Assembly: GCA_000182565.2 (NCBI GenBank)
Contig: KQ257460.1
Reading direction: 5' to 3' (one strand)
Source of the DNA: Spizellomyces punctatus DAOM BR117
Taxonomy: Eukaryota
Length of the DNA: 64,000 bases
The position numbers and the translations under genes are program-made. The notes beneath the pieces were generated by a model. The model was not told the DNA's origin. It saw only the letters and a program-made list of their open reading frames with translations, and searched no databases. This document shows, in pieces, positions 13,423-63,684 of the stretch (within the stretch, counting starts at the first letter, position 1; the number at the start of each line of letters is the position of its first letter).

Positions 13423-15477
13423 TTATGGTATCTTTGTCTCCTTGGGTGGTGTCCCAGTGATATCCTCCTCCCGAGCATGCTGGTGCCTAAACGTCGAGTT
13501 CCATCTCTGAAACACGCCGGTATCAGTCGCTTGGGCATCCATAGACATGCAGCGTCGTTGCGGGAACCATTTCTTACTTCCAAACAGCCCGAGTGTGCTC
13601 AGATGATCTCGGGCGAGTTCTTCTGCAACATTGGAATCGCTTTCAGATGACGCGGGGACTTCGCCTTCGACGCTCCAGACTGAGCTGTGGTGGCTGCCGC
13701 TGCCGGTAAGCGGAAGGATTCCGCGTGAGCGGCCGCTAGAGAGGCTTCGGCTAGTCTTGTAACGGTGTTTGATACCCCTTCGTGCCGCAATATAATTGTC
13801 AAAGGCCTGCGGGATTTCAATAGTTCCTGCAGCAAGACTCAATCTCCGCCCTCTGGACACCGCTATTTCGTCGGATTTGTTGGGAGGGGGTTGGGCCGGT
13901 CGAACAGAGGCACCCATGCTTTCCCATTTTGCTCGATTCCCAATGAGGTTTTCGACAAAGGGTCGCATGGACGGCAGCAATTCGCCAAGAACTTCGAAAT
14001 AGGGTCTGGCAACGTATTCATTGAAGTCAAAGCCTATCTGAACCGGATTCGTGGTTTCGCGGTCCATATTGGGGGAGACGGGGAGGTTCATCTTCTTTTC
14101 TTGTTCTCCTTGGAGGAAAAACTCTTCGACGACCATGTCGGACCAGCGCTTGCATATTGCGTAAGGTCTTGCGGCATTGCTAATGTCTGACGACGTGCAA
14201 AGAGAATGAGTACAAAAATGACAAGTTGAAGTGCATTGCACATACACACCTGCAGCATGGAGTAGGACATTGATCATCTGCTGTCTCTGATCTTTGCTCA
14301 AAAGTAGACTTGTCCTTCTCGCGACACTCGGACGTTGACTACCGACACTATCGCTCGATACCGACGATATCCGTGGAATGGTATTCACGCTCTCTGCCGA
14401 CGCATTTATATGCGATGGCGTTCTTGCCCCATTGTCCCCTGTGCTCTCCCTCTGTTCTGGTTTTGTTAGAACCACCCCACGGTCCTCGTCATCGCTATAT
14501 AAGTCTTCCTCGCTTGGTGATGGCGAGCCAATAACGGCCTCGGTCGTGCAGCTCAACTTGTCCAAAAGCCCGAAATGATGGCACATGTCCGTGTTTAATA
14601 TTGCCTCCAAGGTGATCTTTTGAACAAGCGCAGCAGGATCCTTGATATTTTCTCCAAATTCGCCGTAGGAAAGCGTGCGCAGAAAGGTGTGCTTTTGCAA
14701 GAGGTATTGTACGTGGTCGCATGATTGCATCTCGAGGACAGATTTGAAGTTGAATCGCTGAGCAAGCTCGGTTCGCGCGTTTATCTGCGGGGCCCAAGAA
14801 TGAAGTGAGTGTGATTGTCACGATACCAGTCTTTAACGGAATACGCACATGGTACAAGTTGTTCAAACCGGGATGCAACACATCATGCGTCAAAGCGGCA
14901 ATGAGCAGCGCAACAAACTCTACCGACGTAAATCCCAACTCCTCCGCCAACGCCAGGTCGGCCAAAATCCAATACACCATGTATGTTACATCCGCAGCGT
15001 GGAGGAAGGAGTGGTACGGATTGTCCTGGTAGCCATTTGCAACGTCCACGACAAAGTCCAATAAGCTTGCAAAAGTCTGTGAGTCTGGTACCAAGCCATG
15101 CTTGACAAACATGCCCAAAATAAGTCCATAGAGTTCTTCAGACAAAAAAGTTAGACCCTGTGTCGCGATGCCCTTTAACGGAATGGCTCCGACATACCTG
15201 GCTTTGACCATTCCCAGACTTGAAAGTCCATTCCCAGACCGTCAATATTCCCGCGGACGAACTCCTCCACCACCTGTAATGGGAATGTGTCAAATCATGA
15301 ACCGCGGGAGTGAATTGCAGTCACCGTCGTTAATACCCTGTACACTGTTTCCAAGTCATCTGCATCCAGTAATGTGGATTGAGAGAGGTTTAGAGTCTCA
15401 ATGGGAACATGAGGACCATCGAACGTAAGTGGAGAGGAAATCAGTGACGGCGGAGGCGGCGGAGGCAAAGAAGCCAT
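13423..15477 (-). CDS. Class I 3',5'-cyclic nucleotide phosphodiesterase (HD/PDEase_I domain)
   Basis: NPYHSFLHAADV, HDVLHPGLNN, ILNTDMCHH, HAA|DISN, EEFFLQGEQEK, QIGF motifs across exons. Confidence 0.92.
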
Positions 15478-15728: not shown

Positions 15729-17009
15729 TTGTGTTTTCATTGCGCGCGCCCGTCTCCCAACGTTTCTTTTTTTGTTTTCCAAAACACTCTTTATCATGCA
15801 GTGTTCACCTACTTTTCATTCGTATGCAGACTCTTGTCCAGTTGGAGGAGGAACCAGAGCACATACATTCCTGCAAAGGAGAGAGATGTGGAGGGATATA
15901 ATGTCTAATTGCATAGGACTAGAAGATGCTACCACATGACTGTTTATGGGAGATGGTCAACTTTGGAAATGATTGCTTTAAGACTGATTGAGCTTTTGCC
16001 GGCGCAAAAGCAGCGATAAGTAACATGGTCATCTCCTCTAATTCAACGTATCAAAAAGCCTTCATCTTTCCAACTCCCTCCTTGTCGACCTGGAAGATTC
16101 AAAAAGGCGACGCTGCGCAGTTGCATGAGCAGTTGTAATCACTGGATGGAATGCACTGGATTCATCCACTATCTCCACTAACGCCCATCCTCCCCAGCAC
16201 GCATCGTACAGAAAGGAAGATGTCGCCCACGGAGAGCAACGTCCTTGAATAGTCTTGTCGCCTTGTCACTGCGTATAGCCTCACAGATTTCATTGACATT
16301 CCACTAATGGCAGAAAGACATCGCTGGGTATGCTAGGGTGCTGTAGCAAGCGGAGATGCAGTCTCTTGTACCGATCCCAAACAAGTAGATGGAGATTGTA
16401 AACTTTCATTGCTACCTCCTACTTGCTCAAAACGTTCACGCCCTTTTCTGAACTGTATATTCTGGCGTTTGCATGCGCAACATTCAAAGAGTCCGTGTGC
16501 AAGTCACGTGTTATTATCTCCTTCACGTGTTCGTCTGAATGGATAGCAACATTTTTATCCTTGGAGTGTGATTGGATTGCATTCCACTCAACTCTCGCTT
16601 TTTTTTTTCTCCTGGTTTTTTTCGTCTCGTCCCCGTCGCGGATATAAAAAGGGAGTGGACGAGTCGCCCCCCCGCTTTTTTTTTCTTCTTTTTTTGCGTT
16701 AGCCAGCGGGTTTCCCTTCCTTCCGTCCCATTGTCCCCACACCCCCGTCTGCTGTCCGGTCTTATTTTTATCGAGGAATTTTGGGTATCTGTTCGGTAAG
16801 TAGTCAACGAGCGACGACGACGAAGAACTGCAGTCAATGGCGGTGTCCCCACCGTTTTGGCGCAGTTTTTTTTTTGCAGTCTGCTACAGGTATATAAAGA
16901 GTTTCCTTTCACTCACTTTTTCCTCTTGTTCCTGTTTGTTATTTTAGACTTAGAACATTTATAGAAGAGTCCTTGTTTTCTTCGTTTTATTCTTATTATC
17001 ATACCACAA

Positions 17010-20000
17010 ATGGCTGCAAAGGCTGACCCAAAGACCGCGACTCTTGTCGGCGACCTCCTCAACACCCTCACCACCGCTGCGACCTCGGATGAGCGACGGA
17101 CCGCTGCCAAAGACTTGGCTGGTATCGTCAAGACGGCCGGCGCGCGCGTCGGTCTCACCCAGTACGGTATCTTGGACGCTTTGAAAACCGCATCCGAGCA
17201 CAAGAAAAGCGCTGGAGCACGTGAAGGCTCGGTGCTCGCAATTACCGCCTTTGTAGAGGCCCTCGGTCACACTGCGGAACCTTACCTCGTTTCCCAACTT
17301 CCCCTCGTCATTGAGCTATTTGGTGACAAGGACAAGGATGTCCGTGCCGCTGCCGAAGAAGCTGGTGATGCGCTCTTCAAGCTTCCTGGACGGTTCTCTG
17401 TCCGTCTCCTGGTTCCTCTCCTCCTCTCCCAGCTCACAAACGAGAAAAAGTGGCAAACAAAGGTCGCTGCCCTAAAATACCTCGGCCGGATGTCTGAGCA
17501 CTCGGCAAGCCAAGTATGCGCTTGCTTGCCTGAGATCCTTCCCGTCGTCTCAACATGCATGTGGGACACAAAGCCTGAAGTCCAGGTTGCCGCCAAGGAG
17601 GCCATGACACAGGTTACTGGAACCATTGACAACATTGATATTATTCCTTTCTTGCCCTCATTGATTGGATGTATCGCCGACCCCGACGAAGTGCCAGAAT
17701 GCGTGTTCAAGCTCGCTGCTACCACTTTCGTGACTGAAGTTCAAGCTCCCACCCTTGCCATCATGGGTCCTCTTCTCACTCGTGGTCTTTCCGAGCGCAA
17801 GCCCGCTGTGCTCCGTCAAACTTGTGTCATTATTGACAACATGTGTAAGCTCGTTGAGAACCCCGCCGAGGCACATCAGTTCTTGCCTCCTCTTCTGCCC
17901 GGTATCGAACGTATCATTGACGTGCAGGCCGATCCTGAACTTCGTGCTGTGGCTGCCCGTGCGAAGGCCACCCTCATTCGTGTCGGTGGTGGTGCCGACG
18001 TTGAGACTGAGGACCCAGAGACTGTAGCCAAACGCAAGGCCGACGCGCACCAGGAGGTCCTTGACACCTTGAAAAAGACCATCAAGGACGTTACTGGTGG
18101 TGAAGTTGATACTCAGACGCTCGAGTACGTGGCTGCCCACATTGAGGCCATGTATGACACACGCATCTTCAACACCCCCGACTGGCACGGTGCCACTGTC
18201 GCGTTCATTGCCCCTTTCGTCGGTGAAGAAAAGGCCAAGGCTCTTGCCAAGCCCTTGCTTGTTCACTACCAGGCCTTGGACAAACTTCGTCAAAAGGATG
18301 CCAAGCAAGAAGATCTGGAGGAAGGCGAAGAACTTTGCAACTGCGAATTCTCTCTTGCGTACGGTGGTATGATTCTGCTCAACAACACCAAGCTTCGATT
18401 GGTCCGTGGTCAACGTTACGGTCTCTGCGGTCCCAACGGTGTCGGAAAGTCCACGCTTATGCGTGCCATCGCAAACGGCCAGTTGGAAGGTTTCCCTCCA
18501 GCCGATGAGTTGAAGACGGTCTTTGTCGAGCACACCCTCCAAGCTGAGGATGCTGACTTGTCCGTGCTCGACTTTGTCCTTGCTGACCCCAAGATGATGG
18601 AGAAGAAGGACGAAGTTGTCAGCACTTTGAAGAGCGTCGGCTTTAACGACGAGCGTCTCGCTCAGGCCGTCGGTTCCCTTTCTGGTGGTTGGAAGATGAA
18701 GCTCGAGCTTGCTCGTGCCATGTTGGAGAATGCCGATATTCTTCTTCTTGACGAACCTACAAACCATCTTGATGTGACCAACGTACAGTGGTTGGTGGAC
18801 TACCTGACCAACCTCCCCAACGTGACCTCGATGATTGTCTCTCACGACTCCAAATTCTTGGACAATGTTTGCACCAACATTATCCATTATGAGAACCGCA
18901 AACTCAAGACCTACCGTGGTAACTTGTCCAAATTTGTTGAGCAGCGTCCCGAGGCAAAGTCCTACTACGAACTCTCTGCCGCTACCGTAAAGTTCAAGTT
19001 CCCCGAGCCTGGATTCCTTGAAGGTATCAAGTCCAAGGACAAGGCGATCTTGAAGATGATTGGCGTCAACTTCACCTACCCCGGTGGCTCCAAGCCTACA
19101 CTTACTGGCATCTCATTGCAATGCTCTCTCAACTCTCGTGTTGCCGTCATTGGTCCCAACGGTGCTGGTAAATCTACCATGATCAAGCTCCTGACTGGTG
19201 AGCTCGTCGCCGACTCTGGTGACGTCTGGAAGCACCCCAACCTTCGTGTCGCCTACGTGGCCCAGCACGCCTTCCATCACGTTGAGCAGCATCTCGACAA
19301 GACTCCCAACGAGTACATTCGTTGGCGTTACCAGTACGGAGAGGACAAGGAATCCCTCATCAAGGCTGCCCGTCAGTTGACTCCCGAGGAGGAGGCTGCG
19401 CTCAAGAAGCCCATTACCATTGAAGGCGAGAAGCGTCTCTTTGAGGAAATCATGGGTCGTCGTAAGGCCAAGCGCTCATACGAGTACGAAGTCAAGTGGA
19501 TGAACCGTTCCCACGATGACAACACATGGCACTCTCGCGACCGTCTCGAGGACTGGGGTTTCGAAAAGATGGTCCAATGGTTTGATGAAAAGGAGGCAGC
19601 CAAGGAGGGTATGTACGCCCGTCCCTTGACTCAAAAGGGAGTCGAGCAGCACCTCAACGATGTCGGTTTGCAACCCGAGTTTGCTACCCACAGCCGTATC
19701 CGTGGTTTGTCTGGAGGACAAAAGGTCAAGGTTGTCCTTGGAGCGGCCATGTGGAACAACCCCCACATGTTGGTTCTTGATGAGCCTACCAACTATCTGG
19801 ACCGTGATTCCCTTGGTGCTCTTGCTGGTGCCATTCAAGACTTTGGCGGAGGTGTCGTTATCATTTCTCACAACCGCGAGTTCACTGGTGCGATTTGCCC
19901 CGAAGTGTGGAACGTTGATGCTGGAAAGCTTTCCATCACTGGTGCTAAGCGTGACATGCCCATTGAGAAGATTGAGTTGAAGGAAGCCGAGACTGTTACT

Positions 20001-20138
20001 GACGCTTTTGGCAACGTGAGCAAGGTGAAGTCCAAGAGAAAGCTTACCCGCAAGGAATTGAAGGCAAAGGAGAAGCGTCGTGCCCTCAAAATCAAGAACG
20101 GAGAGCCCCTTTCCGAATCAGACGAAGATGACTTTTAG
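17010..20138 (+). CDS. YEF3: Translation elongation factor 3 (eEF3), ABCF-type ATPase
   Basis: Intronless 1042-aa ORF: HEAT N-terminus, LCNCEFSLAYGG, two ABC cassettes (GPNGVGKST/LSGGWKMKL; GPNGAGKST/LSGGQKVK), chromodomain-like insert (YEYEVKW), basic C-tail; strong codon bias. Confidence 0.97.
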   Translation: MAAKADPKTATLVGDLLNTLTTAATSDERRTAAKDLAGIVKTAGARVGLTQYGILDALKTASEHKKSAGAREGSVLAITAFVEALGHTAEPYLVSQLPLVIELFGDKDKDVRAAAEEAGDALFKLPGRFSVRLLVPLLLSQLTNEKKWQTKVAALKYLGRMSEHSASQVCACLPEILPVVSTCMWDTKPEVQVAAKEAMTQVTGTIDNIDIIPFLPSLIGCIADPDEVPECVFKLAATTFVTEVQAPTLAIMGPLLTRGLSERKPAVLRQTCVIIDNMCKLVENPAEAHQFLPPLLPGIERIIDVQADPELRAVAARAKATLIRVGGGADVETEDPETVAKRKADAHQEVLDTLKKTIKDVTGGEVDTQTLEYVAAHIEAMYDTRIFNTPDWHGATVAFIAPFVGEEKAKALAKPLLVHYQALDKLRQKDAKQEDLEEGEELCNCEFSLAYGGMILLNNTKLRLVRGQRYGLCGPNGVGKSTLMRAIANGQLEGFPPADELKTVFVEHTLQAEDADLSVLDFVLADPKMMEKKDEVVSTLKSVGFNDERLAQAVGSLSGGWKMKLELARAMLENADILLLDEPTNHLDVTNVQWLVDYLTNLPNVTSMIVSHDSKFLDNVCTNIIHYENRKLKTYRGNLSKFVEQRPEAKSYYELSAATVKFKFPEPGFLEGIKSKDKAILKMIGVNFTYPGGSKPTLTGISLQCSLNSRVAVIGPNGAGKSTMIKLLTGELVADSGDVWKHPNLRVAYVAQHAFHHVEQHLDKTPNEYIRWRYQYGEDKESLIKAARQLTPEEEAALKKPITIEGEKRLFEEIMGRRKAKRSYEYEVKWMNRSHDDNTWHSRDRLEDWGFEKMVQWFDEKEAAKEGMYARPLTQKGVEQHLNDVGLQPEFATHSRIRGLSGGQKVKVVLGAAMWNNPHMLVLDEPTNYLDRDSLGALAGAIQDFGGGVVIISHNREFTGAICPEVWNVDAGKLSITGAKRDMPIEKIELKEAETVTDAFGNVSKVKSKRKLTRKELKAKEKRRALKIKNGEPLSESDEDDF

Positions 20139-20667: not shown

Positions 20668-22714
20668 ATGATGCTCCTGAGATCCAGACAAGCCCTCCTA
20701 TTTTATTCCCCAACATTGCTGTGCGTACGAACATCCGTATCATGGACTGCAGGACGCTTTCTCTCGACACGCATTGTGCCGTCTTTCATCCCACGCACGA
20801 CACTTTCGAGTCGCATGGTGTCGACGGTACGTTCTTCCGCCGTATCGATATCCACTTTAAAAAAGGGATTCCATCGGTATCGGCTCTCAATATGGGGTCT
20901 CAGTGGAGTGGGGTGCCTCTGTTTTCTTCCTGTAATATACACCGCAGAGCAGGATAATGTCTCTTCCTCCATACCCGCTGTCATTGAAGAAGCTCCCCGA
21001 CCCGTAACAACAACACCGCTTTGGAAATCACCATTAACACTCCTCCGACTCTGCTGGCGCATTGTAGTGCTCGCATTCTTTTTTGCCCCTGTTGTTATCA
21101 CGTTTCCTGTTTGGTGGTATATGAACCGGCAGAGGATTGCGAGAGGGGGGAGGGGCGAGGATGGGGGGGTGAGACTTTGGTGGGTGAGATTATGCGCATG
21201 GGCTTTGGAGAGGTGTGGACCCTTTTTTATAAAGGTTTGTACTTATTTCATGTGAAGGACAGTGTTGGATGAAGTGTGTGAACTCATCAGACTCACCCTT
21301 GACTTTGGCATTGTGCTAGCTGGGACAATGGACTAGCTCCCGGACCGACCTGATTCCTCCCGAAATCTGCGCCGTCTTTGCTCGTCTCCAGAACCGTGTG
21401 ACACCCCACCCGTTTTCCGCAACCCGATCGGCTGTCCAAGCCCTCTACAACAACGTACCGCTCGATGATATTTTTATTGAATTTGATGTAGATCCTATTG
21501 GTGTTGGTGCGGTCGCCCAAGTTCACCGCGCGGTTCTCAACCCCACAGATACGTCTCCACCCATTGAATGCGCCATCAAAGTCCTTCACCCTAACGTAGA
21601 AGAACAAGTATCGATCGACCTGGCCCTTCTCGCCGCCTTTGGTGCCTTTCTGAACCTCTTTCCTGCCGCCAAGTACCTCTCCATCCCAGAGGAAATCGCC
21701 ACCTTTGATCACATGATGCGGGATCAAATGGACATGACCATTGAAGCTCGAAATCTGGACATCTTTCGGGAGAACTTTGAGGGGCAAGATGAGAAGGGGC
21801 GGAGAAGGGGAGTGGCGAATGTCACTTTTCCAAAGCCACTCAAGGCATCTCGACGAGTTTTGGTCGAAACATTTCATCATGGGTTGTTGCTGAGGAGTTT
21901 GTTGGATAATGGGCCGACACCGTACGATGCCCAACTCGCTCTTATTGGAGTTTCGGCATTCATGGTAGGCTTGATAAACATTCACTTTCTTTTCCTGTTG
22001 ACCTACTAACCGACCATAACAACAAACAACTATTAGCAAATGATCCTCAAAGACAACTTTTACCACTGCGACCTCCACCCTGGCAACATCCTCATCACTT
22101 TTTCGCGCACCCCCTCCTCACCCAGCATGGCTCAAAAAGCCGGGGCATGGCTCACAACCAAAATAGACCCCACCAAAGACGCCAAAACCCAATCACTCTT
22201 CCATCCTCAAACTCTTGCGCGCGACGCATTGGACAACCTTGCTCGTGCACCATCGGATGCGTGGAAATCGATTCTCCAGCGGATGGTGAATGAAGGATAT
22301 GAGCCTCAGGTTGTGCTCCTGGACGCGGGGATCGTGTCCAGCCTGAGTCCAAAGAACATGGATAATGTTAAGGAATCATTTCGAGCTGGTTTGGAATACG
22401 ATGGGGCTCGCATTGCAGAATTGCTCTTGACGCGATGTAAAGATCCTGACAATGTGCGGGACCCTGAAGGAGCAAAGGAAACACTGCGTGTCATTATGGA
22501 TGACTTGAAAATGGACGCGGGCGGCCGGCTCCCACTGTCCAGGATTCATACCGCAAAGGTCATTGCGCGGGTTGCCACATTGTTGAGGGATCATCGGATT
22601 GGATTGGATGGAGAGTTTGTTGGGCTTTTTGTTTGTTCTGTAATTATTGAGGGGGTTGGGAGAAAGTTAGATGCCGATATGGACTTATTGGAGCCTTTGG
22701 CCGAGTATCTATGA
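20668..22714 (+). CDS. ABC1/UbiB-family atypical kinase (ADCK2/Cqd1-like), probably mitochondrial, 3 exons
   Basis: GPFFIK|LGQW..SRTDL, PIGVGAVAQVHRA, AIKVLHP, EARNL, HCDLHPGNIL, LDAGIV, EGVGRKLD; Arg/Leu/Ser-rich N-terminus. Confidence 0.9.
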
Positions 22715-26011: not shown

Positions 26012-26477
26012 AACGCTAAGAAGATAACGGGTTGGAGACGGCCACCTATGTCAAGTCTGGCTTCAAGCAATAATTTATCGTTTTTCATACCGAACATTGT
26101 CCTCTACCACTTGCTGCGACGCTTTGCTTGGCGCAAAGCCATCGGTAGGTGAACGCCATGACATTTTGGGTGATTTTGGTTGCTTTTTAGTAAGAAAAGC
26201 GCGAGGAAATGGTGTTCAGATCGGTTGAGATGACGGGCAAACAGCTAGCGTCAAGTTCAAACACCGCCGCTGATGATGCAGTCGCTGGGTGGCCCAGATA
26301 TCACAATGTTCACGTGTCGCACATCAAACTGGGCAGAGTGCAAGCAGCATTCCAAGCAACCCCATCGACATTCACTGTTCCTCCACAGGAGATCTGAGTA
26401 CTTTACGGTGGTAACACGACGTGTGGTAGCTGACTGCGGCGAACGACTTTTCGGGGCTATTCCATGAAGGACCGACC

Positions 26478-29322
26478 ATGGCAAACAGGAAACTGTTAGG
26501 TATGCAGAATCTCTTTTTTTGCACAGTCAGTGGGACGAAAGCGAGAGATGGCATATTGCGAGCTTGCTGTCATGTATTTTTGAAAAGCTCTTGGCTCACA
26601 TTGTTTCTTTTACAGGAGAGATTGATAAGGTTCTCAAAAGGGTTGCGGAAGGCGTCGAGATCTTCAGGGAGACATTTGACAAACTCGATGCTGCCACAAC
26701 ACCAGCTCAAAAAGAGAAGTATGAGGGAGACCTCAAGAAGGAAATCAAGAAGCTACAACGGTTGCGAGATCAGATAAGAACATGGCTCTCATCAAGCGAC
26801 ATTAAAGACAAGAGAAATCTTGAAGAGAATCGGCGACTCATTGAGGAGGTACGCATGGCGATCGCCTAGCCATACGGAACCGTTGCTGTAAACGAGCCCT
26901 TATCGCTAATGCTCTTCGTCTACTGTAGCAAATGGAGCGATTTAAAGCTGCAGAAAAGGCCCTCAAGCTGAAAGCATTCTCAAAAGAAGGTCTCTTGCAG
27001 CCGCAAAAGTATGATCCAGAAGTGAAAGAAAGAGAAGACCTGGAGGACTGGATATCGGACACTGTAAAAGAATTGAATCGACAGGTTGAAGTTTTTGAGG
27101 CCGAGCAAGAAAGTCTACAATTGCAAGCACGAAGAGGACGCAAAGGGGGCGATGCGGCAAAGGCAGAGCGTTTAGCAGCAATTGACCATCAGCTCGAGCG
27201 ACATAAATGGCACATGACACAACTAGAAATCATTCAACGAATGGTTGCGAACGAAGAGCTGAAGGTCGAACAGGTAGGAGAAGACTTGATTTGGAAAATA
27301 CTTGATAAAGACACTTACTAATTCCACGCCACAATACCGTGTTAGGTTAAAGCCATAAAAGAAGATGTAGATTACTACGTCAAAAACAACCAGGATCCAG
27401 ATTTCGATGAAAATGAATACCTTTATGAGGATCTGGATCTTGAGAATCTGGAAGCATATGGTCTCAAGCCGGACGATGGTCATGAGGAGGGAGGATATGG
27501 TACGTGATTCAGATCATATCTCAGAGTAACGGCCCGGCTCATACTTACAACTGTATTCAGAACCCCAAACACCGCCCAAGGAGAAGGATGTATGTACCTC
27601 TTATGTACCTCTGCCTGACAATGGATCTGTCGCATTGAGCTTTTATATTTTTCAGACTGCCGAACTTAATCTCACAACTCCAGCCCGAGATGCGAAGCAT
27701 CATGACGACTCGGCCAAGCGAAAGTCATCAAAGGATAAAACTGACCTTGAGGATGTAAGTCCTGATCGGCCTCGGCTGTGGCGGAATTTAACAAGCAGTA
27801 TGTACGCTGACTACTACCTGAACTGGTAGATTACGACCCCAACCAAGACAGCGATCGTAAAGGCTGCCGCGAGAGTAGCAGGTAGAATCTATGCTTGTAA
27901 GCATGCCTCTGAACCTCTGTTTGCTGAACACTGGCAATTTATCAGCAGTTCCGAAAGCACCAGCTCCGGTACCAGTGCCGGTGCCAGTCCCAGCGCCTGT
28001 TCCAGTTAAAACGCCTGTGAAAGCTGTGCCAATCACAACACGTCCCGTTGTTGCGACTCCGCGGGCTCCGGAGCCAGCCCCTGTGCCAAATATCACGCAA
28101 CGATATTCGGCGGCAGCAGCTGCTTCAACACCGGACAGCGCAACTCGAGCTGGCGCATCGCAACCCGTTGCTGCAGATAAGCGAGCAGTTCCAAAAGGTG
28201 GGATATGCAGGATCGTATGAAGTTCGATGGCCGTGCCTACAAGTATTTATTTCGTCAAATTTAGCACGCGTCGTCGAAGAATCACAACCTGCTGCGATCC
28301 CTTCACCCTCTTCGCTACCAACTCCTCCGGCTCAACCCCCGTCAGGGACACATCCACCTCTACCTGTTGCGGCTTCATCGTCTGGAGTCGTGGAATCCTC
28401 TCCATCTGCTGTTCCTTCCGGTAGCATAGTAAAAGTAGGGGTCATTTGCTTGGGCAAACTATGGAGCGATAGCATCTCACATTGGTTGTATTTTTATAAT
28501 AGCAAGCAGCTCCGACAGCACCGACAGATCCAGCCAAGGACGATGCCGCGGCAGAGCCCATCGACAACCGATTACCCCCAACACTTGCTGACTTGGTACA
28601 GTCATTTGAAGCGACTCGTGACCGATGTAAGAGCACCATGCTCGTGCTATTTGTCGAATCTATCTAATGAGGATTGTCATTAGCCACAAGAGCGAAGGAT
28701 GACTCAAGTTTCCTTCAAGAAATGTTGCAGACGAGTTTCCAATTCTTACCGGATCCGCTTGATTCTGAAAGGTAAACAGATTGACTGATCCTTCTTGAGG
28801 AAAGCATGCTCACAGAGGCTGACCTCTCGTAGACCGAAGCACTATATTCCTAAAAACCCCTACCCAGTGCCCACGTACTACCCCCAATTACCACTCCCTC
28901 TTTTTGAGAATCCCAGTGTATTTGAGAAATTCGACACCGATGTACTGTTTTTCATCTTCTACTACCAGCAGGGAACATATCAGCAGTACGTGTTCGGTCA
29001 GCTTCGTCTTGTGAGCGGAGATATGTTAATTCAGCAGCGTTTGTGGCAGATACCTAGCAGCACGGGAATTGAAACGGCAATCGTGGAGATTTCACAAAAA
29101 GTACCTAACGTGGTTTCAACGGCATGAAGAGCCAAAGCAGATAACAGACGAATACGAGCTTGGGACATATATTTACTTTGACTACGAAGGAGCTTGGTGT
29201 CAAAGAAAGAAAGCAGATTTCCGGTATGTTTCAGCCTCCCATTGGTCAGAACAGACCCTCAGTTTGTAAATGTTTGCATGTGCAGATTCGAGTATCGATA
29301 CCTGGAGGATGCAGAAATGTAA
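26478..29322 (+). CDS. NOT3: CCR4-NOT complex subunit Not3/Not5 (CNOT3)
   Basis: [55 protein letters not shown], and NOT-box [43 protein letters not shown]. Confidence 0.95.
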
Positions 29323-37881: not shown

Positions 37882-39821
37882 ATGGCGTCGGAACAATCAT
37901 CGAACGCAGTCGCCATTCCCACTCCGTCTAAACCTCTCCCGCTAACGCCAAACAGCAACGCATCTTTGAACCTTGCAAAGTCAGCGCCGTCACGATTCCA
38001 TCCCGACACATTGTCATTTTCGGAACAACACCAAGAACAACCGCAACAACTCGTTCCTCCCCTAACCGTCCGCTTGCAGCTTTTTCCGCACTCTGACCGA
38101 CCAGCTCACCACTCGCATCAGCATGACCGCCATCATCACCACTACACAGCCTTTTCATTCACCCCGGTTGAAAAAGACTTGTATCCGGGGGGAATTATTC
38201 GTATTGGTCGAAAGGTGGACAGGCATCATGTTGGACGGGAGAAGACTCGCCGAGGAGACAAGAGCAACAATGTTGCTGATGGCGAAGAGGAAATGGAATT
38301 TGTGATAGGGTCGCCGCCCGTTGCGGAATTGATGGATGAAATGGAAGTGGATCGTGAGACGAGCGAGAATTCATCACAAGAACCCGGGGAAACGATAAAG
38401 AGAAGAGCAGAGTTTATAGCATTCCGAAGCAAGGTTGTCAGCCGAACACATGCCGAGCTTTGGGTCGGAAAGGATGGACAGGTGAGAATATTGTGCATCC
38501 TGACGGCTTCTGGCGAGTGTAAACTGACTGCCGTTACTTGCGCACTCCACAGGTCTTTTTTAGGGACGTGGGAAGTTCTTCCGGAACCTTTCTAAATCGT
38601 CTTCGGTTATCTCCAAGTGGGAAGGAAAGCATTCCTTACAACCTTAAAAACGGCGATGTGGTCCAGTTGGGAGTTGATTATCAGGGAAGACAAGAAGAGA
38701 TTTACAAATGTGTCATGATCAAAATCTTTATAACTGTCAAAGTTGGGTACAAACCCAAGCTGAATCCGCACAGGTAAGGTGAACCGTATGTTAGCTTGAC
38801 GGTACCGACCTGTTTATTAAATGATCCTTGTAGACTCCGCCTTGCAGTCAAGAACCTGGTTATAGCAATGAACCCGAACGCTGACTCGTCAGATCCATCG
38901 ACACATGCCGAAGCGTCAACCGATTGTTGCATTTGTCTGTGCTCAATATCTCCCTTCCAGGCCTTGTTCCTTGCTCCATGCTCTCATTGCTTCCACTACA
39001 AATGTGTCACACCTCTTTTGGGATCCGGCGTCATGTTTTTGTGTCCCATGTGCAGACAGGTGGCAAACCTTGAGGCGAGCGTTGCAGAGGCGGAAAACGA
39101 CGACGAGTGGGAGAACCCTGAAGAGGAGATTGGCACCAACGGGTCGGGTATGGAGCTAACGGTAAACGGACAAGCAAGCGGATCTGCGTCGGGAAGACCG
39201 CGCTCCGTGCGATCCGTGTCTGGTAAACCGAGTCAGGCAGACATGGACTCCCGCATAAAACAAATATTATCAGAAGCTGATACTCCTGTACCTCGCGTCA
39301 CTGCTAACGACCTGGATGCGTTGCTGTCAGATGGAGAAGGGACGTCCGATCCGGCATCTACTACAAACGGTCCTGTGGCGGACGTTGTTGGAAGTCCACC
39401 AGACTCTTGGGGCATCACGCTTGCACGACCAGGAAAGAGTTCCCGAGGAGTTGGTGCCCCGGTCCCAATACAACGAAGTGGAACCAAGGTCAATCATCGT
39501 TTCCGTACCAGTCCAGACTCACCACTTCCTGTCCTCCCCTCTGGGCTAAGCCGCGAAGGTGACCGCAAAGGGGGGCTTGTTGGGGATGTGCCAGAGAACA
39601 TTGCTGCATCCTTGATCGGGCAGTATGCCGCAGTCATGGATGCAATTATTGCCAGTATACCCAAGGGACCAGAACGAGACGAAGTGAAACGCAAAGTGGC
39701 TGAATTAGAAGCACGAAGTACGGATGTTTTAAACGGCGTAAAAGCCAGTGCAAGTACAGGAAAAGGAAAGCAGAAGGCTGGCATGGGGGAAGGGAGTAGT
39801 GACGGTGATGAGGAGGCATAG
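37882..39821 (+). CDS. dma1: FHA-RING E3 ubiquitin ligase (Dma1/Dma2-like)
   Basis: IRIGR, IAFRSKVVSRTHAE, DVGSSSGTFLNRLRLS, LKNGDVVQLGVDYQG, RING CCICL..QALFLAPCSHCFHYKC..CPMCRQVANLE. Confidence 0.9.
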
Positions 39822-45409: not shown

Positions 45410-47865
45410 ATGGGCCATCACGTCATGTCGCGTATCGGCCTGGTGTTGATGGTGATGGCGGCGTGGGTCATGGTATCGGCTCAGAATCTTGGATGTGATT
45501 CACCGATTTACTGTCCTGGACCATTGTTGGATGCTGTTCAACGGGCCAAAATCTACAAGGATTCCAAAACGTAAGTAGATTGAAAACATGTAATGAAAAT
45601 GTGCTGGAATGTGTTTTTTTTGATTGTTGGTTTTTCGTGATTCCCTTTTAGGTTTGTCGATAAACCCACCACCAAGCCGCTTTCGCAGGTTCTCTCAGCT
45701 TTTAATGCCTTGGGTCCTAACCCGTCCGCCGCAGCCATCAAAACCTTTGTCGACCAAAACTTTGGACCTGAAGGAACGGAAACGGAACCTGTTGTTCCGC
45801 GCGACTGGAAGCCTTCGCCTGCCTTTCTTTCGTCTATCAAGGATGGCAATCTACGTGAATGGGGGCAGATTGTTCATTCCATTTGGAAAAACTTGACTAG
45901 AGATTTTAAGACGGAGACAGCAAACTGTACAGAATGTGTTTCGAGTCTGCTGCCGGCCAAGCATACGTTTGTGGTACCCGGCGGCCGGTTTAGAGAGTTT
46001 TATTATTGGTGAGTTTAAAGTCCAAATTTCGGTTCAAAAAGATGTGGGGGGTAGTTTGCCCAAAAAAAAAATAACACGAGGTCATTAAATCGTGTGTTTG
46101 AATCTAGGGATTCGTACTTTGTAATGGAAGGCCTCATTCTCAGCGAAATGTTTGAAACAAGCCAAGATATTATTGAAAACCAGATGGACTTTATCGACAA
46201 GTACGGATTTGTTCGTATGTAGAGTGACAATTTTTTTGTGTGTGTGAATAGCCAGTATGAGGTTGGCACATGCTGAATATTTTTTGTCTTTAGCAAATGG
46301 TGCGCGGATATACTACCTCAACCGATCGCAACCACCCATGCTAACTCAAATGGTCGATTTGTACATTACTGCAACAAAAAATACCTCTTCCCTGGCTCGG
46401 TGGTTACCATTACTTGATAAGGAATATCAAGTATGAAGTTCTAGTCGTTTCATATTTGCATTGGGGTGGTACTGATCGGCTAATGGTGCACTACATGCAG
46501 TTTTGGCAGAAAAACCGAACTGTCACAGTCAAAGGCCAGGATGGAAAAGACTACCTCTTGAATCGCTTTGATGTTACCAACCAACAGCCGCGCCCAGAAT
46601 CTTGGAATGAAGACTTGATTACAGTAGAGGGAGGTAATATTACTGGAGATGCCGCCAAAGCTCTGTACGCAGACCTCGCTACGGCTGCAGAGTCGGGGTG
46701 GGACTTTTCGTCTAGATGGTATTGTTGATTTCGTCTTTATTTATACGCGTTCTGTTTCATAACGCATTTCAATGCAGGGAGAACAACCCGACAAACAACA
46801 GCGATGCACAAGGCAACCTTCGTCGTCTCGTCACCCGCCAGATCATTCCAGTTGATCTCAACAGTCTCCTTTACGCTAATGAGCAATCCTTGCAGAAACT
46901 GCATACCATGGCAGGGAACCGTGACCAAGCCATGTTGTACAAGCGAGAGTCTACGAAAAGACGCTTGGGAATGTGGGAGGTATTTTGGGATGATAGAGAA
47001 GGGAATTTTATGGATTTTAATTTGACGAGTGGGAAGAGAAGTATTGTTCAGACTCCTGCTGGATACTGGCCACTGTGGTACGTTCCTATTTAGTTTTGGG
47101 GAGAACGTTGATGTAAAGTGTACGGAACGTCTCACCATTCTGGTATGGGTATTGGATTGTAGGTCAGGAGTAGCCTTGGAAGATCCTCGTGGAAAACCCA
47201 CGGACAGGTGTACCGATCTCATGAGACCTTTTTCGGACCTTGACTCCGTTCTTAAACGGTTCCCAGGCGGTATTCCAACCACGTTTTTTAACACTGGGCT
47301 TCAATGGGATCTTCCCAACTCTTGTAAGCAAAGAGTCCCTTTTTTGTTTTCGAATTGTGTGTTTAACAATGGGTCATTATTAGGGCCTCCGCTCGCTTTT
47401 ATAACCATGCGCGCCCTCCAACGCACCATTACAGCCCTTCCCAGTCAAAACTGCACAACAAACTCTGTCAACAGTCTCAAGACAACTCTTCAATCCGCTG
47501 CCCAACAGTATATTACCTCCGCATTCTGCTCCTGGCGCGAGACGGGTGGAAGACTCGCGAACCTCCCTCCAACAAACACAACAGCAAAGGACGATGGAAA
47601 CATGTTTGAAAAGTTTGATGCTACCAAGGTGGGCGGTGCTGGCTCAGGTGGAGAGTATGAGGTTCAAGATGGGTTTGGGTGGACGAATGGAGTGGCTATT
47701 TGGACCCTAAAGGAATTTGGAGACGTTTTGAAAGCGGAATCGTGTACGGTTGGGCAGAAGCAGGGGCAAACGGACAATAAACAGACGTCTGCTGGAAGGC
47801 GGAGGGTGGGTGTCCCGAGATGGGCTGTGGTACTAAAGGGTCTGATGCAAACAGTTGGGCTGTGA
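45410..47865 (+). CDS. Secreted alpha,alpha-trehalase (GH37)
   Basis: Signal peptide, then CDSPIYCPG, PGGRFREFYYW|DSY, NGARIYYLNRSQPP, RPES, AAESGWDFSSRW, PVDLNS, QWDLPNS, GGEYEVQDGFGWTNG. Confidence 0.95.
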
Positions 47866-53489: not shown

Positions 53490-54811
53490 ATGGCATCAAG
53501 TGATGCGCTTTGCTTTTTCGATCTCGATTCCTATATGGGTAGGTGTCTGCTTTTCATGCCTGACGTTTGTGTGTTGCTTTGCCCTTTTTGTGTTTGTCGC
53601 TCGTCAAAAGGTCAGGCCTGCCGAAAGGGCAGCTGTTGCTGTGTGCTTTCTCGCAGGCTGCTGGGAACTGTGACTGCGCCTCAGTCGCGTTCCATGGAAG
53701 GGCGGGCAGGCTTTTTGACCACTATTCTATAAAACCTTTTGGTTTTCCTTGGCCTTTCCTGCTGTTCGCAGTTGGCCTGCCTCTTTCACAAACTCTTTTT
53801 TTTTTGGCTCTCATGTCTTATCCATATTATGCTTTTCGTCCTTCAGATTCACCCTACACCACTACCATGACGGATACGTCATCCCCCGGCAGTGTATATC
53901 CGAGCTACCCAATATCGCCCGAGGTGTCCGATCCGCTGGCCACATTCTTCAACGATATGAACGCCATGCCAATGTTTGACGACACAAAGGGCCAGCAAAC
54001 CGGAGACAAGCTGTTTGAACAGCTTCTTTTGGACAGCGTGAGTCCTACAACGTCTACAAATGACATTCGGTACGGAGCGCCGCCGGTCGCCACCAGCCAT
54101 CCTGGATTCTATAACGCAAGTCCTGCTACTACGACAATGACTGCTACGAGTCCCGACGGATCCCCTCAAACAGATGGGCTCCTCTCACCAGCCTTTAGTC
54201 CAGCCCCATCAGACTTTCACACGTCACCTGAAGCGGGATCTCCGCTACCGTCGTTTGATTCCTTTGATGTCAACTTTCAACCCATGTACGATTTGGATGT
54301 TTCCTGTGGCGCTGTACCTCCGGCAACCACCGAAAAGAAACCACCGATTGATCTCAAGAAACTGGACATGCTCAAGGCTGGTGCTCAACATCAGCAAGTC
54401 CGCGCATTGTTCCCTGAGCTATTGCCAACCATAGAACGGCTACGAGAGGTAGTACTGAAAAAGGATGGTGCTCAAGAGCCCCAGACTACAACACCGTCGG
54501 CACCCTCCTCGTCTGTAAACGTCCCTTGGGCCGCCACGTCAACACATTTAATGCAGTCAACAGAATCGACACAACCAATAAAAGGTCGAGTCGGCCGCAA
54601 GCGAAAGCCACGACCAACAGATCCCCTTCTCATTGCCGCGGAGCAGCACGCCAAGCGGCAAAAGAACACAGAAGCCGCCCGCCGGTCCCGTTTGCGCAAG
54701 ATGCTCAAAATGGAAACATTAGAAGAGGAACTCAAGGCAGTGACAGATGAGCGGGATGAGCTAAGGGAAAGAGTTCGGCTTTTGGAACAACAGCTTGAAA
54801 GAAAGGCTTAG
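53490..54811 (+). CDS. GCN4: Gcn4/CpcA-type bZIP transcription factor (exons 53490-53538 and 53847-54811 inferred)
   Basis: C-terminal KRQKNTEAARRSRLRK plus leucine zipper matches the Gcn4 basic region. Acidic/aromatic activation patches present. GTAGGT donor at 53539 and pyrimidine-tract CAG acceptor at 53846 join in frame; strong start context caacATGG. Confidence 0.85.
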
Positions 54812-55644: not shown

Positions 55645-56903
55645 ATGACTGGAGTAACTTCCACTACGAGCGTAAAGTCGAGCACGTCGACTAAAAAACC
55701 CAAAAAGTCCTTATCAGTGCGGGACAGTACGTTGCTGAAAATCTTGCAGGGTAAAACGTGTTATCCGCTGTCATTGGGCGAGTTTAAAAAGTTTTTGGGT
55801 ATGTTGTGATTAGAGTTTTGTTGCGAACGTGACGAGTTTTTTCTAATGTATTCATGCGGGGCTGGTTGGTAAACTTATAGAGACGAGAGAATTCTCTGCA
55901 GAGAACCTTGCTGTCGTCGAATGGTTCATTAGTTATCGAACCCGATTCAATGCGCTCCCAACCTCGGAACGCGAACGCTCTCCCCCACCTGCCTCGTCCG
56001 ACCAACAAGGAACGCTCGGTGCCCTCTCGATAGGAAGCAATGCATCAAGGACATCAACGCCAGATTCGCCAGGTGGGGAAGGACCCACCATCTCACTAGC
56101 GAACCAGGACCTCGAGTTTTTCCAAGTCCTGTTCCAGGGCTTTGATGCCCAAAACACGCCCGACATTAAACTGGATCAAAAACTGGTTGCGGATATCGGA
56201 AGAAAAGACCAACCCTTCCGTTCCGAAGTCAATGCAGCCATCAAACTCTTTTTCACTACCGAAGGAAGTATGGAATTGAATGTCCCCGGAACAATGCGAA
56301 AAGAAATTGTCTCAAATGCGGCCTTGACGACACATCCCGCCGTCTTTGCGCCAGCCGTGAAGCATTGTTTTGATATCATGCAGTCATCGAGTTTACCATC
56401 CTTTATGCGATTTGCGGCTCAGAATATTCAAAAGGATTCCCGGATTGATCGAGGTGTCAAGGGGATTGTGTGCTTCATCCTGGCGTTTATCATGACGTTT
56501 TTACTGGTATGTCTCGTTGTGACTGTCGCAAAGGCGCCTCAGCTCGTGTTTTTTAATCGTTTTGTTTTTACCGACGCAGATTTGGTTCAACAAGTCCCGC
56601 TGGACTCGATTGGGCACCTTCCCCCTCTTCCAACTCTCCGCGTCCTTCCTCTACACTGTCCACACAAGAATGTGCCTTCTCAACCACATGGGCCGCAAAA
56701 AAGAAGTGATTATCGTTGACCAAGATTTAGAAAAAGATGGACGGGATGACGATAATCCCAGAGGCAAACTCCTCATACACACTGTGGAAGAACCTATGGT
56801 GTTTGATATGCAGACACGAATCAAGTTGGAAACATTGGCATTGGCGACCGTGATAGGGGCGTGCTTGACGACGATAGCTGTAGCGATACCCGAGCACTTT
56901 TAG
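55645..56903 (+). CDS. RGS-domain protein with C-terminal TM helices (Rax1-like architecture)
   Basis: ILQGKTCYPLSLGEFKKFL|ETREFSAENL, QPFRSEV, ELNVPGTMRK, THPAVF, SLPSF, then three hydrophobic segments. Confidence 0.82.
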
Positions 56904-60793: not shown

Positions 60794-62088
60794 TCACTCT
60801 TCCAACGCCCCCTTTCCAAACTCCTCAAAAACACAACACACATCACTCATACTAATCACACCCACCGGTTTCGGATTCCCCAAAGCAGTACCCTCAATCA
60901 CGAATACACGTAAAAGGTTCTGGAATAAAAGGTATGCGATGACTTGGCCCAGTGTGAAGCGTTGTGTACAGGTGTGGGGTGGTGGGAGGGTTCCGTGGAC
61001 GTGTCGGAGGAAGACGAGGGGTGGGTTCAAGACTTTTGCGTATGAGTATTTGTTTAATCAAAACCACTAAAAAAAGGTCAAGTTACCTTGATCAAGGCGT
61101 GATTGGTTTAACCCACGTAAATCACTTGCAGAGAGAGTAGCAACCAAAATCCCTTCCTCATCAACAACACCCAAACTCCTCACACCTTCATTCCGCATCT
61201 TTTTAAACCCTTGGATAGTACGTGAGTGCATGGAAATGGTTGTGCAGGATAAACCGTGAATTCCATTTTCGTGGGCAGGATGTTGCGATTGTTGTTTATT
61301 CATGATTTTGTTGGCGTCTATGCAGAGGATTGTGTCGAAATGGTGGTTGTTTGCGAATAGAAAGCGGAGGAGGTCGGTTTGGGTTACGAGGCGGGATGTG
61401 GTGTGAGGGGTGTGTGGGATGAGGACTCGGTGTATACCGTTTGACATGAGAGTAAGAAGACTGGGTTTTTTTACAAGTGTAAGATGTTACTGGGTTCTTT
61501 TTTTGAGATATGGAGTTGTTGCAACTTGCCTTAAAATCGTTTCATCTTCGTCGATGGTCCATACTCGCTCACTTTCACGAGTCAAGCCAATCGCCTCGCG
61601 GACAGGGTGTTGCAAAAAGTCTGCCCGCTGTTGAATGAGGCTGGGGTCCTCAAGTTCTTGATCAAACACAGGCTGCCAAAAAGAAAACCCGTGTCATTAC
61701 ACATGTCGTCTGTGACTTGGACATGAGGGTTATATACTTGGAAGGCTGTATAGGTCAATAAATCCAATCTGCCAAAAAAAAAGAAGGAAAAACAAGAATA
61801 TGTCAAAAGCATGTCAAATAGATATGAGCACAAGAGTTACGTACACATCAACAATCGAAATAAACTGTTTTTCATCCTCGCTCCATACTGGGACGGCTTG
61901 GATGTCGTTTGCCAACAGGACGTCAAAGGTCTTGAATGAAAACATTTTTGTATTATTAAAAACAAATGAAAACAATAGTTTTGGTTTACCTCTTCTACAG
62001 TGGTAGAGTCTTTGACGCTGATGAGTGGCCGAGCGGGGAGAGCTTTCAATAGGGTAGATACGGGTGTCGTCTGTATGAATTCAGACAT
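60794..62088 (-). CDS. CBS-domain protein (Sds23/AMPK-gamma-like tandem CBS)
   Basis: LISVKDSTTVEE, DIQAVPVW, IVDV|LDLL, GIHRVLI, LVTQTDLLRFL, VVDEEGILVATLSASDLRGL, PVGVISMSDV. Confidence 0.85.
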
Positions 62089-62373
62089 GCTGATGGACGT
62101 TCTTTTGGGTAGAAAGACTAGAGTTGCTTAAAACCTTTATTAATCTTGAACAGTGCCAGATAAAAAGGGATGGCGGACAAGGCTTTTCCCTTTTGAAATC
62201 ATCTGGTCTGGTCGCGTCACTCGTTGAGGATTTCACACCTTTTTGTTGAGGGGGTTTGCGTGCGCGTTTGGCGGTGCTTGCGAGATATCTGTTTTTTTTT
62301 ACACATTCCGATAGCAAAAACCTTTTTTGACGGAAAGTATATCGGGAGGGTAAGAGTATATTCCGCAACAAAC

Positions 62374-63337
62374 ATGCACCACAAAGAATACACCCGGCAT
62401 TCCACAACCTCCCACCACACAACACCATCCAATACATCCCTCTCATACTCGCATTCCCATCCCCTCCTATCACTCCAAATTGACCCAACATACATCTCGG
62501 ACGCCTCAATGCCATCCACGATCCTCCCAGAAGATATCATGGTGGGCGTGGATGCTCCCCCGGAGGGTACATACGCGCCATTCTTCTCCCCCGAAAAAAG
62601 TGAACCCACTAGATCATTCCGACAGAGTGTAACGAGTGTCGCGAGTTGTCCCAGTACGATGCACTGGAGTGATACGAGTGACTGTGAGGAGGATTTGGAG
62701 GTGTTGATGAGGAGGGTTGAGGAAGCTTTAGGAGGCCAAGAAGATGCTGAGGCGAGTTTGTTGTTGAAGGTTCAACAGGTGTTGAGTTTTAGTGATGAGA
62801 GTCGACGTGATGGATTGGGGGATGAGGGTTTGGATATACCCAATATGGATCTTTTACCGAATGATACGTACCTATCACCGGCATCCAATACCGTTCATTC
62901 TGAGAGTCAATCCAACGTGAAGACGACTCGCTCAGCACTCGACAGCCAGCACCACAACCGTTGAAGAATACCAATCCCCCCTCAGTCCAAACCGCCCCAA
63001 CAACACATATCAAGTCCCAAAAATCGAATACGAATCCTTTATGGCTGACGACGATACCATTGTCGAGGTACCACCACATCACAACTCTATACCCTTTACT
63101 CATACTAATAATGTTAAAACACAGAGAGCACTTGCACCCCTCTTTGCTAAATACGCCCCCTCTCTCATCCCACTACGCTCAGAAGACACCACAAGCGTAT
63201 CCACGACATCCACCTATGGGGATCTATCGATGGCGAGTTTGGAGTATTTGAGACGGTATGGGTTAGGAGAACAGAGTCGGGTGTTGGATGTTGAGAGGAT
63301 TCGGAGGTTACCGAAATTGGGTATGCCGGGTATGTGA
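62374..63337 (+). CDS. Putative STIL/Ana2/SAS-5-like centriole assembly protein (two reading frames joined by an intron or an indel at about 62868-62961)
   Basis: C-terminal LFAKY..., DLSMASLEYLRRYGL (STAN-like) and VLDVERIRRLPKL (TIM-like); upstream frame has a short acidic amphipathic helix. Confidence 0.7.
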
Positions 63338-63684
63338 ATGGGGTGTTTGGTGGTTTTGTATTGTATATTCTTTTCTTTTTTTTATTGAAAGTGTAATTTG
63401 TGATGGGTTCTGGTGGATGGGTTAGATTTGTAAGGACATTGTTATCGTACATACATCAATAGATGGTATGTATTTCTTCAAGAAACATCCACCTTATGTT
63501 AAGCTCCCTGTCTGCATACTACATACAGGGTCGTGTGCAAGTGTGTGCGTGCAGGAAAATGTGTGGGACTTGTGCTTTGGGCGACATTTGAAATCACATC
63601 TATTGACACTCTTACAGTTTCCTGTTCAATATAGAGTAATTTTACTATCCAATTGGTGCCTAGACGAAACTACGTCTTGACAAA

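Follow-up and report, generated by a model that had tools for sequence, protein, structure and literature searches.

A conserved chytrid protein family laid out like Ana2 and its interrupted gene in Spizellomyces punctatus

The locus and its gene

In a stretch of 64,000 nucleotides from contig KQ257460.1 of Spizellomyces punctatus DAOM BR117 (assembly GCA_000182565.2; this whole stretch is called the window below), we examined a gene on the + strand that starts with an ATG at 62374 and ends with the TGA listed in Table 1. Its C-terminal part had been taken, in an original prediction made from the letters and their open reading frames, for a fungal centriole-duplication factor of the STIL/Ana2/SAS-5 type with STAN and TIM motifs. 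The frame 62951–63334 translates to TTTVEEYQSPLSPNRPNNTYQVPKIEYESFMADDDTIVE[VPPHHNSIPFTHTNNVKTQ]RALAPLFAKYAPSLIPLRSEDTTSVSTTSTYGDLSMASLEYLRRYGLGEQSRVLDVERIRRLPKLGMPGM, followed by the stop codon, and its elements succeed one another as VPKIEYESFMADDDTIVE, VPPHHNSIPFTHTNNVKTQ, RALAPLFAKY and, last before the stop, GDLSMASLEYLRRYGLGEQSRVLDVERIRRLPKLGMPGM. All four peptide strings quoted in the prediction lie in this one frame (62951–63337) and in the order given there.

The closest relative of the product is TPX57756.1 (P0019 in our alignments, hereafter the sister protein), a 'hypothetical protein' of 303 residues from Spizellomyces sp. 'palustris'. It starts with MHHKEY, as the window gene does, and is 91% identical to exon 1 in alignment A3; the exon 1 frame has a coding-potential score of +23.4, as against −73.6 and −93.5 for the two other frames. 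At the other end of the gene, exon 3 (63125–63334) differs from the sister protein at 2 of 70 positions. The bracketed 19 residues VPPHHNSIPFTHTNNVKTQ are the product of reading through an intron, which is confirmed because these residues are missing in the sister protein and in other relatives, where VE is followed directly by RALAP. The RNA depth on the + strand is 0 in the bin 63069–63119, in a region where depth is low overall. The N-terminal and C-terminal parts of the window gene lie in different reading frames, and the linker between them is treated in a later section. The predicted Ana2-sized protein of about 300 residues is not confirmed as a clean gene in the window, where the frame is interrupted.

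This is a genuine gene, transcribed at its 3′ end. In an RNA run under the same species label (X2), the depth rises from 2.5 at 63120–63170 to about 25 at 63222–63476 and then drops to 1.7 and to 0. With its slow rise on the left and sharp drop on the right, this profile is consistent with the 3′ end of a + strand transcript. At 63282 the same run has G for T in 4 of 13 reads, which would change the Val before LDVERIRRLPKL to Gly and could reflect a strain difference or a read error. Over the 5′ end of the gene, at 62304–62507, there are a few RNA reads (depth up to 3) with the first mate on the − strand, an orientation opposite to that at the 3′ end; they could come from a divergent upstream transcript of the CBS-domain gene listed among the neighbours below, or from antisense RNA.

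Table 1. Features of the gene, in window coordinates
Feature	Position	Strand	Remarks
Exon 1 frame	62374..62892	+	173 codons; open until stop 62962-62964; N-terminal motifs and central helices
N-terminal motif HPLLSLQIDP	62458..62487	+	HPLL in 14/17 entries covering the N-terminal part
Proline-rich motif PPEGTYAPFFSPEKS	62557..62601	+	P.G.Y.P conserved in Spizellomycetales and Rhizophlyctidales members
Central amphipathic helix pair EDLEVLMRRVEEALG ... EASLLLKVQQVLSF	62683..62790	+	alignment A3, AlphaFold2
Linker with frame discontinuity	62893..63013	+	exon 1 frame stops at 62962-62964; C-terminal frame open from 62921
STAN-like block A, first half VPKIEYESFMADDDTIVE	63014..63067	+	conserved Ser in IEYES
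Intron	63068..63124	+	57 nucleotides, in frame; GTACCA ... TACTAAT ... CAG
STAN-like block A, second half RALAPLFAKY	63125..63154	+	ALAPLLAKYL in relatives; predicted helix 231-243 of the sister protein
STAN-like core DLSMASLEYLRRYGL	63221..63265	+	two serines three residues apart; predicted helix 269-277
TIM-like block VLDVERIRRLPKL	63281..63319	+	five residues before the stop
Stop codon TGA	63335..63337	+	end of the C-terminal frame
3′ untranslated region	63338..63490	+	transcript end near 63480-63500, RNA run X2

A family of chytrid proteins and its conserved blocks

The gene belongs to a family that is conserved in flagellated chytrids. An exhaustive HMMER (phmmer) search with the 128-residue frame against 1.84 billion representatives returned nine proteins at E ≤ 0.001, of which eight are relatives. 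P0002 (950 residues, E = 1.1e-5) was judged a spurious match to a repeat protein and was kept out of all alignments; it consists of about six tandem repeats of ~150 residues and matched the query through four short stretches, indicating that an E-value near 1e-5 in this search can be spurious for repeat proteins. Word-indexed profile searches added further matches, namely 10 at E ≤ 0.01 out of 8000 scored candidates with 325–2000 residues and 6 at E ≤ 1 out of 4152 candidates with 42–324 residues. No Dikarya protein was matched in these profile searches, the sensitivity of which is limited by the word index, and a search for related loci in metagenome contigs gave 88 pattern matches with none confirmed.

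The relatives with a named source are 14 proteins under 10 chytrid species labels, from Spizellomyces, Gaertneriomyces, Fimicolochytrium, Geranomyces, Thoreauomyces, Phlyctochytrium, Rhizophlyctis and Borealophlyctis, plus one from Endogone. As had been expected, every one of them is annotated as hypothetical or uncharacterized. Further members come from metagenomes, among them P0008, to which exon 3 of the window is matched by BLASTP with E = 3e-12 and 25 of 38 residues identical. The members are 285–699 residues long, and one further model of 763 residues carries a dihydrofolate reductase domain. This model (P0014, Fimicolochytrium jonesii) has the domain (PF00186) fused at its N-terminus, probably because an annotator merged two adjacent genes.

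The members share one order of blocks, namely HPLLS[LM]Q, PPxGxYxP[FL][FY]SP, two helices with an acidic loop between them, a DGTY patch, a STAN-like block A, a STAN-like core and a terminal block. Block A has the family consensus [VFL]P[KR]IEYESF ... ALAPLLAKYL; a serine/threonine-rich run follows, then the core (D)QLS.AS.EY..R..L, and finally the terminal block ILDVERIRRLPKL at 1–13 residues from the C-terminus. In the family alignments, the highest conservation falls exactly on the central helix pair, STAN-like block A, the STAN-like core and the terminal block. The sole invariant columns of A3 (L111, V115 and L130) all lie in the central helices, and P, Y and S of the first half of block A are at least 90% conserved in the same alignment. 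In alignment A2, the invariant residues are S, A, Y, R and L of the core together with L, D, E, I and LPKL of the terminal block. An IEYES-like pattern is found in 17 of the 18 entries that cover the region (P0005 has VEYES). The core pattern S.A[ST]..Y..[KR][YH].L is present in 20 of 21 entries that bear the C-terminus, and the TIM-like pattern L[DN][VI]..[IL]..LPKL in all 21, always 1–13 residues from the end, both patterns having been derived from the family itself. The entries without HPLL are P0013 (an N-terminally truncated model), P0008 and P0005. Judged from these alignments, the conserved blocks are not a product of chance.

AlphaFold2, run on the sister protein with an 18-sequence alignment, gave a mean predicted local distance difference test (pLDDT) score of 56.8 and a predicted template modelling score of 0.18. 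The confident elements are solely the helices 102–117, 121–139, 231–243, 269–277 and 289–293; the first two are the central helices, whose block reaches a pLDDT of 72–81. The ESM Atlas's own model has a pLDDT of 0.41. Such a low-confidence model with few helices indicates a disordered protein whose centre is structured and which has short conserved elements. A four-copy complex prediction of the central region (residues 96–148) scored 0.01 against a mark of 0.32, made no use of the alignment and gave an uncertain fold; it counts neither way on self-association.

Descent of the family

The conserved disordered proteins of this chytrid family share the build of Drosophila Ana2, which corresponds to the C-terminal half of STIL. 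We lean towards the view that the locus encodes an Ana2-like factor that recruits SAS-6 to the cartwheel and shares its descent with STIL and Ana2. The foremost alternative is that the protein is a fungus-specific disordered protein of separate origin, that its motifs are mere look-alikes, and that the real chytrid STIL is the protein with the STIL_N domain; this we consider possible but rather unlikely.

Several results weigh against common descent with STIL and Ana2, and all of them except the broken frame speak at the same time for an unrelated family. There is no significant match to animal STIL, Ana2 or SAS-5 in any search, and at the level of sequence kinship is statistically unproven. 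HMMER found no animal protein at E ≤ 0.001 among the 1.84 billion representatives. Pfam STIL_N (PF15253) was matched neither by the three pieces of the window at E ≤ 10 nor by 18 members of the family at E ≤ 1. Over the whole of Pfam, the three pieces matched no family at E ≤ 10, and the 18 members gave nothing better than E = 0.045. Sequence searches of the PDB gave no relevant match, and those of the ESM Atlas no usable one. A word-indexed search with the 44-residue STAN-core region of P0014 had four candidates, of which the query alone matched, in a type of search that lacks the reach to animal proteins. A literature search for the core string of the original prediction returned 0 papers, and short strings occurred 0 times in the supplements of PMC6570480. 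The metazoan consensus for binding the TCP domain of CPAP/SAS-4, PRxxPxP (PMC3776556), is not present in the N-terminal region of any of the 17 entries that cover it. It occurs in variable linkers of three members only, at 188 in the sister protein, at 440 in P0015 and at 437 in P0017.

A second group of points concerns the distribution of the family and the state of the gene. Absence from non-flagellated fungi was among the checks named in the prediction; a full-length relative is kept in the non-flagellated Endogone sp. FLAS-F59071 (Mucoromycota). This protein, RUS15470.1 (P0018, 467 residues), matched the C-terminal profile with E = 4.4e-5. A hidden Markov model made from the N-terminal and central blocks of other members scored it at 14.7 bits, a value reached by 0 of 2000 shuffles, the best of which scored 10.4; pairwise BLASTP of exon 1 against it was not significant, and the best colinear match, at HPLL, had E = 0.082. 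Its contig is only 5.9 kb long, so that contamination is possible. The Endogone protein retains HPLL, the central helices, IEYES...LAPIMQKY and the terminal LPKL block, and is without the STAN core (pattern S.A[ST]..Y). The coding frame in the window, moreover, is broken between the N-terminal and C-terminal parts of the gene.

The last point comes from the fungal STIL already in print. According to Ito et al. 2019, fungi other than chytrids lack the proteins of centriole biogenesis, and their source table lists SAS-6, CEP135, CPAP, PLK4 (EGF81909) and STIL (EGF76849, found by hmmsearch) for B. dendrobatidis. The proposal that the locus would newly extend the cartwheel module to fungi was therefore anticipated by that table. 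In a 2026 survey of 184 fungal proteomes (PMC13358043), the STIL orthogroup comprises eight fungal proteins, all eight with STIL_N. In the first nine rows of its accession sheet, where columns were assigned by their position, the entries under STIL are Q15468, F6VXM5, Q8JGS1, XP_004999052, EGF76849, KAI9142360, KND04479, ORY37005 and TPX30364, and at least three of the eight fungal members stand outside these rows. Nowhere in the file does TPX57756 appear, although S. 'palustris' is in the species set, and four other accessions of our family are likewise absent from it. PMC3144413 makes no mention of STIL. Searches with the C-terminus of our family, by profile or by HMMER, brought up none of the fungal STIL_N proteins. 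We presume the KND accession series, and hence KND04479, to belong to S. punctatus, as is probable. Because the published orthogroup is all STIL_N and excludes TPX57756, simple orthology of our family with STIL is in doubt. The 'STIL in chytrids' of the published tables is a different protein: EGF76849, KND04479, ORY37005, TPX30364 and KAI9142360 are also found in flagellated fungi and are called fungal STIL, but they are defined by STIL_N, which our family lacks. Surveys in print score chytrid STIL through that domain and leave the Ana2-like family unlisted.

Against an unrelated origin, and for an Ana2-like factor, stand four colinear features that fit Ana2 and STIL: the central helices, two STAN sub-blocks flanked by serines (S-x-x-[ST]) and the terminal block. 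The one block lost by the Endogone member is the STAN core, as would be expected if the core serves a centriole function. Ana2 and SAS-5, too, lack the large N-terminal part of vertebrate STIL, and presumably STIL_N with it. SAS-5, Ana2 and STIL are held to be homologous for their common C-terminal STAN and TIM motifs (PMC4113102, PMC2819680).

It may also be, though we find it doubtful, that chytrids split the function of STIL over two genes, one for the STIL_N protein and one for the Ana2-like protein with helices, STAN and TIM. Such a division would imply gene fission in fungi or gene fusion on the lineage leading to animals. On this view, the Endogone member, which keeps every block but the STAN core, would hint at an additional function of the protein, independent of centrioles and exerted at an acentriolar microtubule-organising centre. 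If the family truly carries the chytrid STAN and TIM motifs, fungal tables of centriole-gene presence and absence need correction, the history of the STIL domains (fusion or fission) becomes testable, and a protein of 300 residues in a transformable chytrid offers a compact model of SAS-6 recruitment. Should the resemblance be due to convergence, the family nonetheless represents a conserved but uncharacterized protein of zoosporic fungi.

The break in the frame and the neighbouring genes

The state of the gene in S. punctatus is a separate question from the descent of the family. The sister protein is continuous over the linker, where it matches the exon 1 frame, then a second frame (approximately 62934–63013) and then the C-terminal frame. 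Compared with its reading, the interruption would amount to two single-base differences together with in-frame insertions or deletions. In the protein alignment each of the two differences looks as though a single base had dropped out of a run of two, which an assembly error could explain. The interruption is either such an error or a real lesion.

Splicing offers no obvious way across. In 62850–63030 no GT..AG pair that would join the frames is accompanied by a [CT]T[AG]A[CT] branch motif; introns elsewhere in the window (in Not3 and Tra1) and the gene's own intron have CTAAT, CTAAC or TTAAT 15–35 nucleotides before the acceptor. As junction introns, 62868–62949, 62868–62985, 62893–62935, 62906–62966 and 62960–63014 were rejected because they are without a branch motif, and 62868–62949 would also delete a Tyr that is conserved in the relatives (DGTY/NDTY). 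The coding potential of the frames over 62941–63013 (2.3 versus 1.0) is indecisive, and a heuristic survey of intron donors over the whole window, with 721 candidates, was too noisy for use. Over the junction the RNA depth is about 0–0.65 and no reads support a splice joint; the sole DNA contig (X1) ends at 62773.

These observations bear on the suggestion that, in this genome, the gene is a frameshifted pseudogene whose product comprises at most 196 N-terminal residues and lacks STAN and TIM. The end of the exon 1 frame ahead of a conserved C-terminus in another frame, the two frame changes required to follow the sister protein and the absence of a canonical intron are all as such a pseudogene would have them. 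On the other hand, the C-terminal 128 codons are open, the close agreement of exon 3 with the sister protein is unexpected for a decaying gene, and transcription reaches the 3′ end, and the two base differences could be assembly errors. We regard a pseudogene as improbable. That the open reading frames 62374–62961 and 62921–63337 are two genes, as their different frames and the stop between them might suggest, is scarcely credible, given that at least 14 relatives have both parts joined in one protein in the same order and that the distance between the two frames is zero.

Elsewhere in the window lie ordinary eukaryotic genes: Tra1/TRRAP (4–9098, −), a protein kinase (11495–12743, +), a cyclic-nucleotide phosphodiesterase (13426–15241, −), elongation factor 3 in one open reading frame of 1057 codons (16965–20135, +), an ABC1 kinase (21320–22711, +), Not3/5 (26468–29124, +), a RING finger protein (38778–39818, +), trehalase (46345–47862, +), a bZIP factor (53564–54811, +), an RGS-domain protein (55847–56719, +) and a CBS-domain protein (61067–62088, −). 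The local splice model is based on introns 26849–26928, 5249–5309 (−) and 3366–3449 (−), which are supported by the continuity of Pfam profiles. Their donors are GTACGC, GTGGGT and GTAAGA, with the acceptor TAG; the Pfam-supported introns of the window are 60–85 nucleotides long and have CTAAT, CTAAC or TTAAT as branch sites. Among the 52 open reading frames scanned, out of 155 of at least 95 residues in the window, there was no SAS-6, Plk4 or STIL_N domain.

Proposed mechanism and comparison with animal STIL, Ana2 and SAS-5

If the locus encodes an Ana2-like factor, the central helix pair would hold copies of the protein together, dock a Plk4-type kinase, or do both. The kinase would phosphorylate the conserved serines beside the STAN-like blocks, in IEYES and S-M-A-S, and the phosphorylated STAN-like region would bind the coiled coil of SAS-6 together with the C-terminal TIM-like block. 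This binding would in turn seed the cartwheel of new centrioles (kinetosomes) in sporangial divisions and zoospore formation. At the N-terminus, the HPLL and PPxGxYxPFFSP motifs would replace the metazoan PRxxPxP in the contact with SAS-4; PPEGTYAPFFSPEKS could be the counterpart of the motif that binds SAS-4/CPAP, though it is not PRxxPxP.

In STIL, Ana2 and SAS-5, a coiled coil in the middle of the protein mediates oligomerisation and the docking of Plk4, and the STAN region, of about 70–90 residues, binds SAS-6 once Plk4 has phosphorylated it. The system that comes closest is Drosophila Ana2. The motif order, the disorder and the helices of the family fit what has been published on Ana2, and to this extent the layout proposed in the original prediction stands. 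In their residues, the core and terminal blocks appear to resemble the animal STAN and TIM strings quoted in the prediction. Ana2 (420 residues, UniProt Q9XZ31, PMC12094185) is, like the chytrid proteins, small and almost wholly disordered. It is highly flexible, with exchange protection in the coiled coil only, and has its Sas4 site in the N-terminal part and STAN in the C-terminal part (PMC7729032). Both have a short N-terminal region for binding a partner, a single structured region of helices in the centre and a C-terminal region of ~70 residues, STAN or STAN-like, with two sub-blocks beside serines, and both are without a large N-terminal domain. The two best-conserved stretches of STAN in Ana2, 325–336 and ~374–389, adjoin the Plk4 sites S318 and S365, S370 and S373, respectively (PMC7729032). 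The distance from serine to serine between the STAN-like blocks is 45 residues here, compared with 55 in the human protein (1061 to 1116) and 52 in the fly (318 to 370). Human S1116 corresponds to fly S370 (PMC4359743), and the S-x-x-[ST] spacing of the chytrid core is the same as that of S1116/T1119 in human and S370/S373 in fly (PMC4220463, PMC4359743, PMC7729032). Unlike Ana2, the chytrid family has HPLL and PPxGxYxP[FL][FY]SP in place of PRxxPxP, and its centre consists of two short helices with an acidic loop between them, whereas Ana2 has one coiled coil of ~35 residues. The TQT sites for LC8 are also a point of difference, being unconserved in the chytrid family (1 of 22 entries).

Vertebrate STIL (human Q15468) shares with the family a central helical region, followed by STAN and then by a motif at the extreme C-terminus. 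Human STAN requires 1061–1083 and 1106–1147, with S1061, S1116 and T1119 critical; a critical Ser thus stands at the start of block 1 and S-x-x-T/S in block 2, as in the chytrid proteins (PMC4220463). In contrast, STIL is longer by a factor of about four and contains STIL_N (PF15253) and the PRxxPxP of CR2, both absent from the chytrid family. The vertebrate members are also larger than Ana2 and SAS-5 (PMC2819680).

C. elegans SAS-5, a small and divergent member, binds the coiled coil of SAS-6 through its C-terminal TIM region (PMC4113102). Its STAN shares 12% identity with that of zebrafish STIL (PMC2819680), a divergence indicating that very low identity is compatible with the same role.

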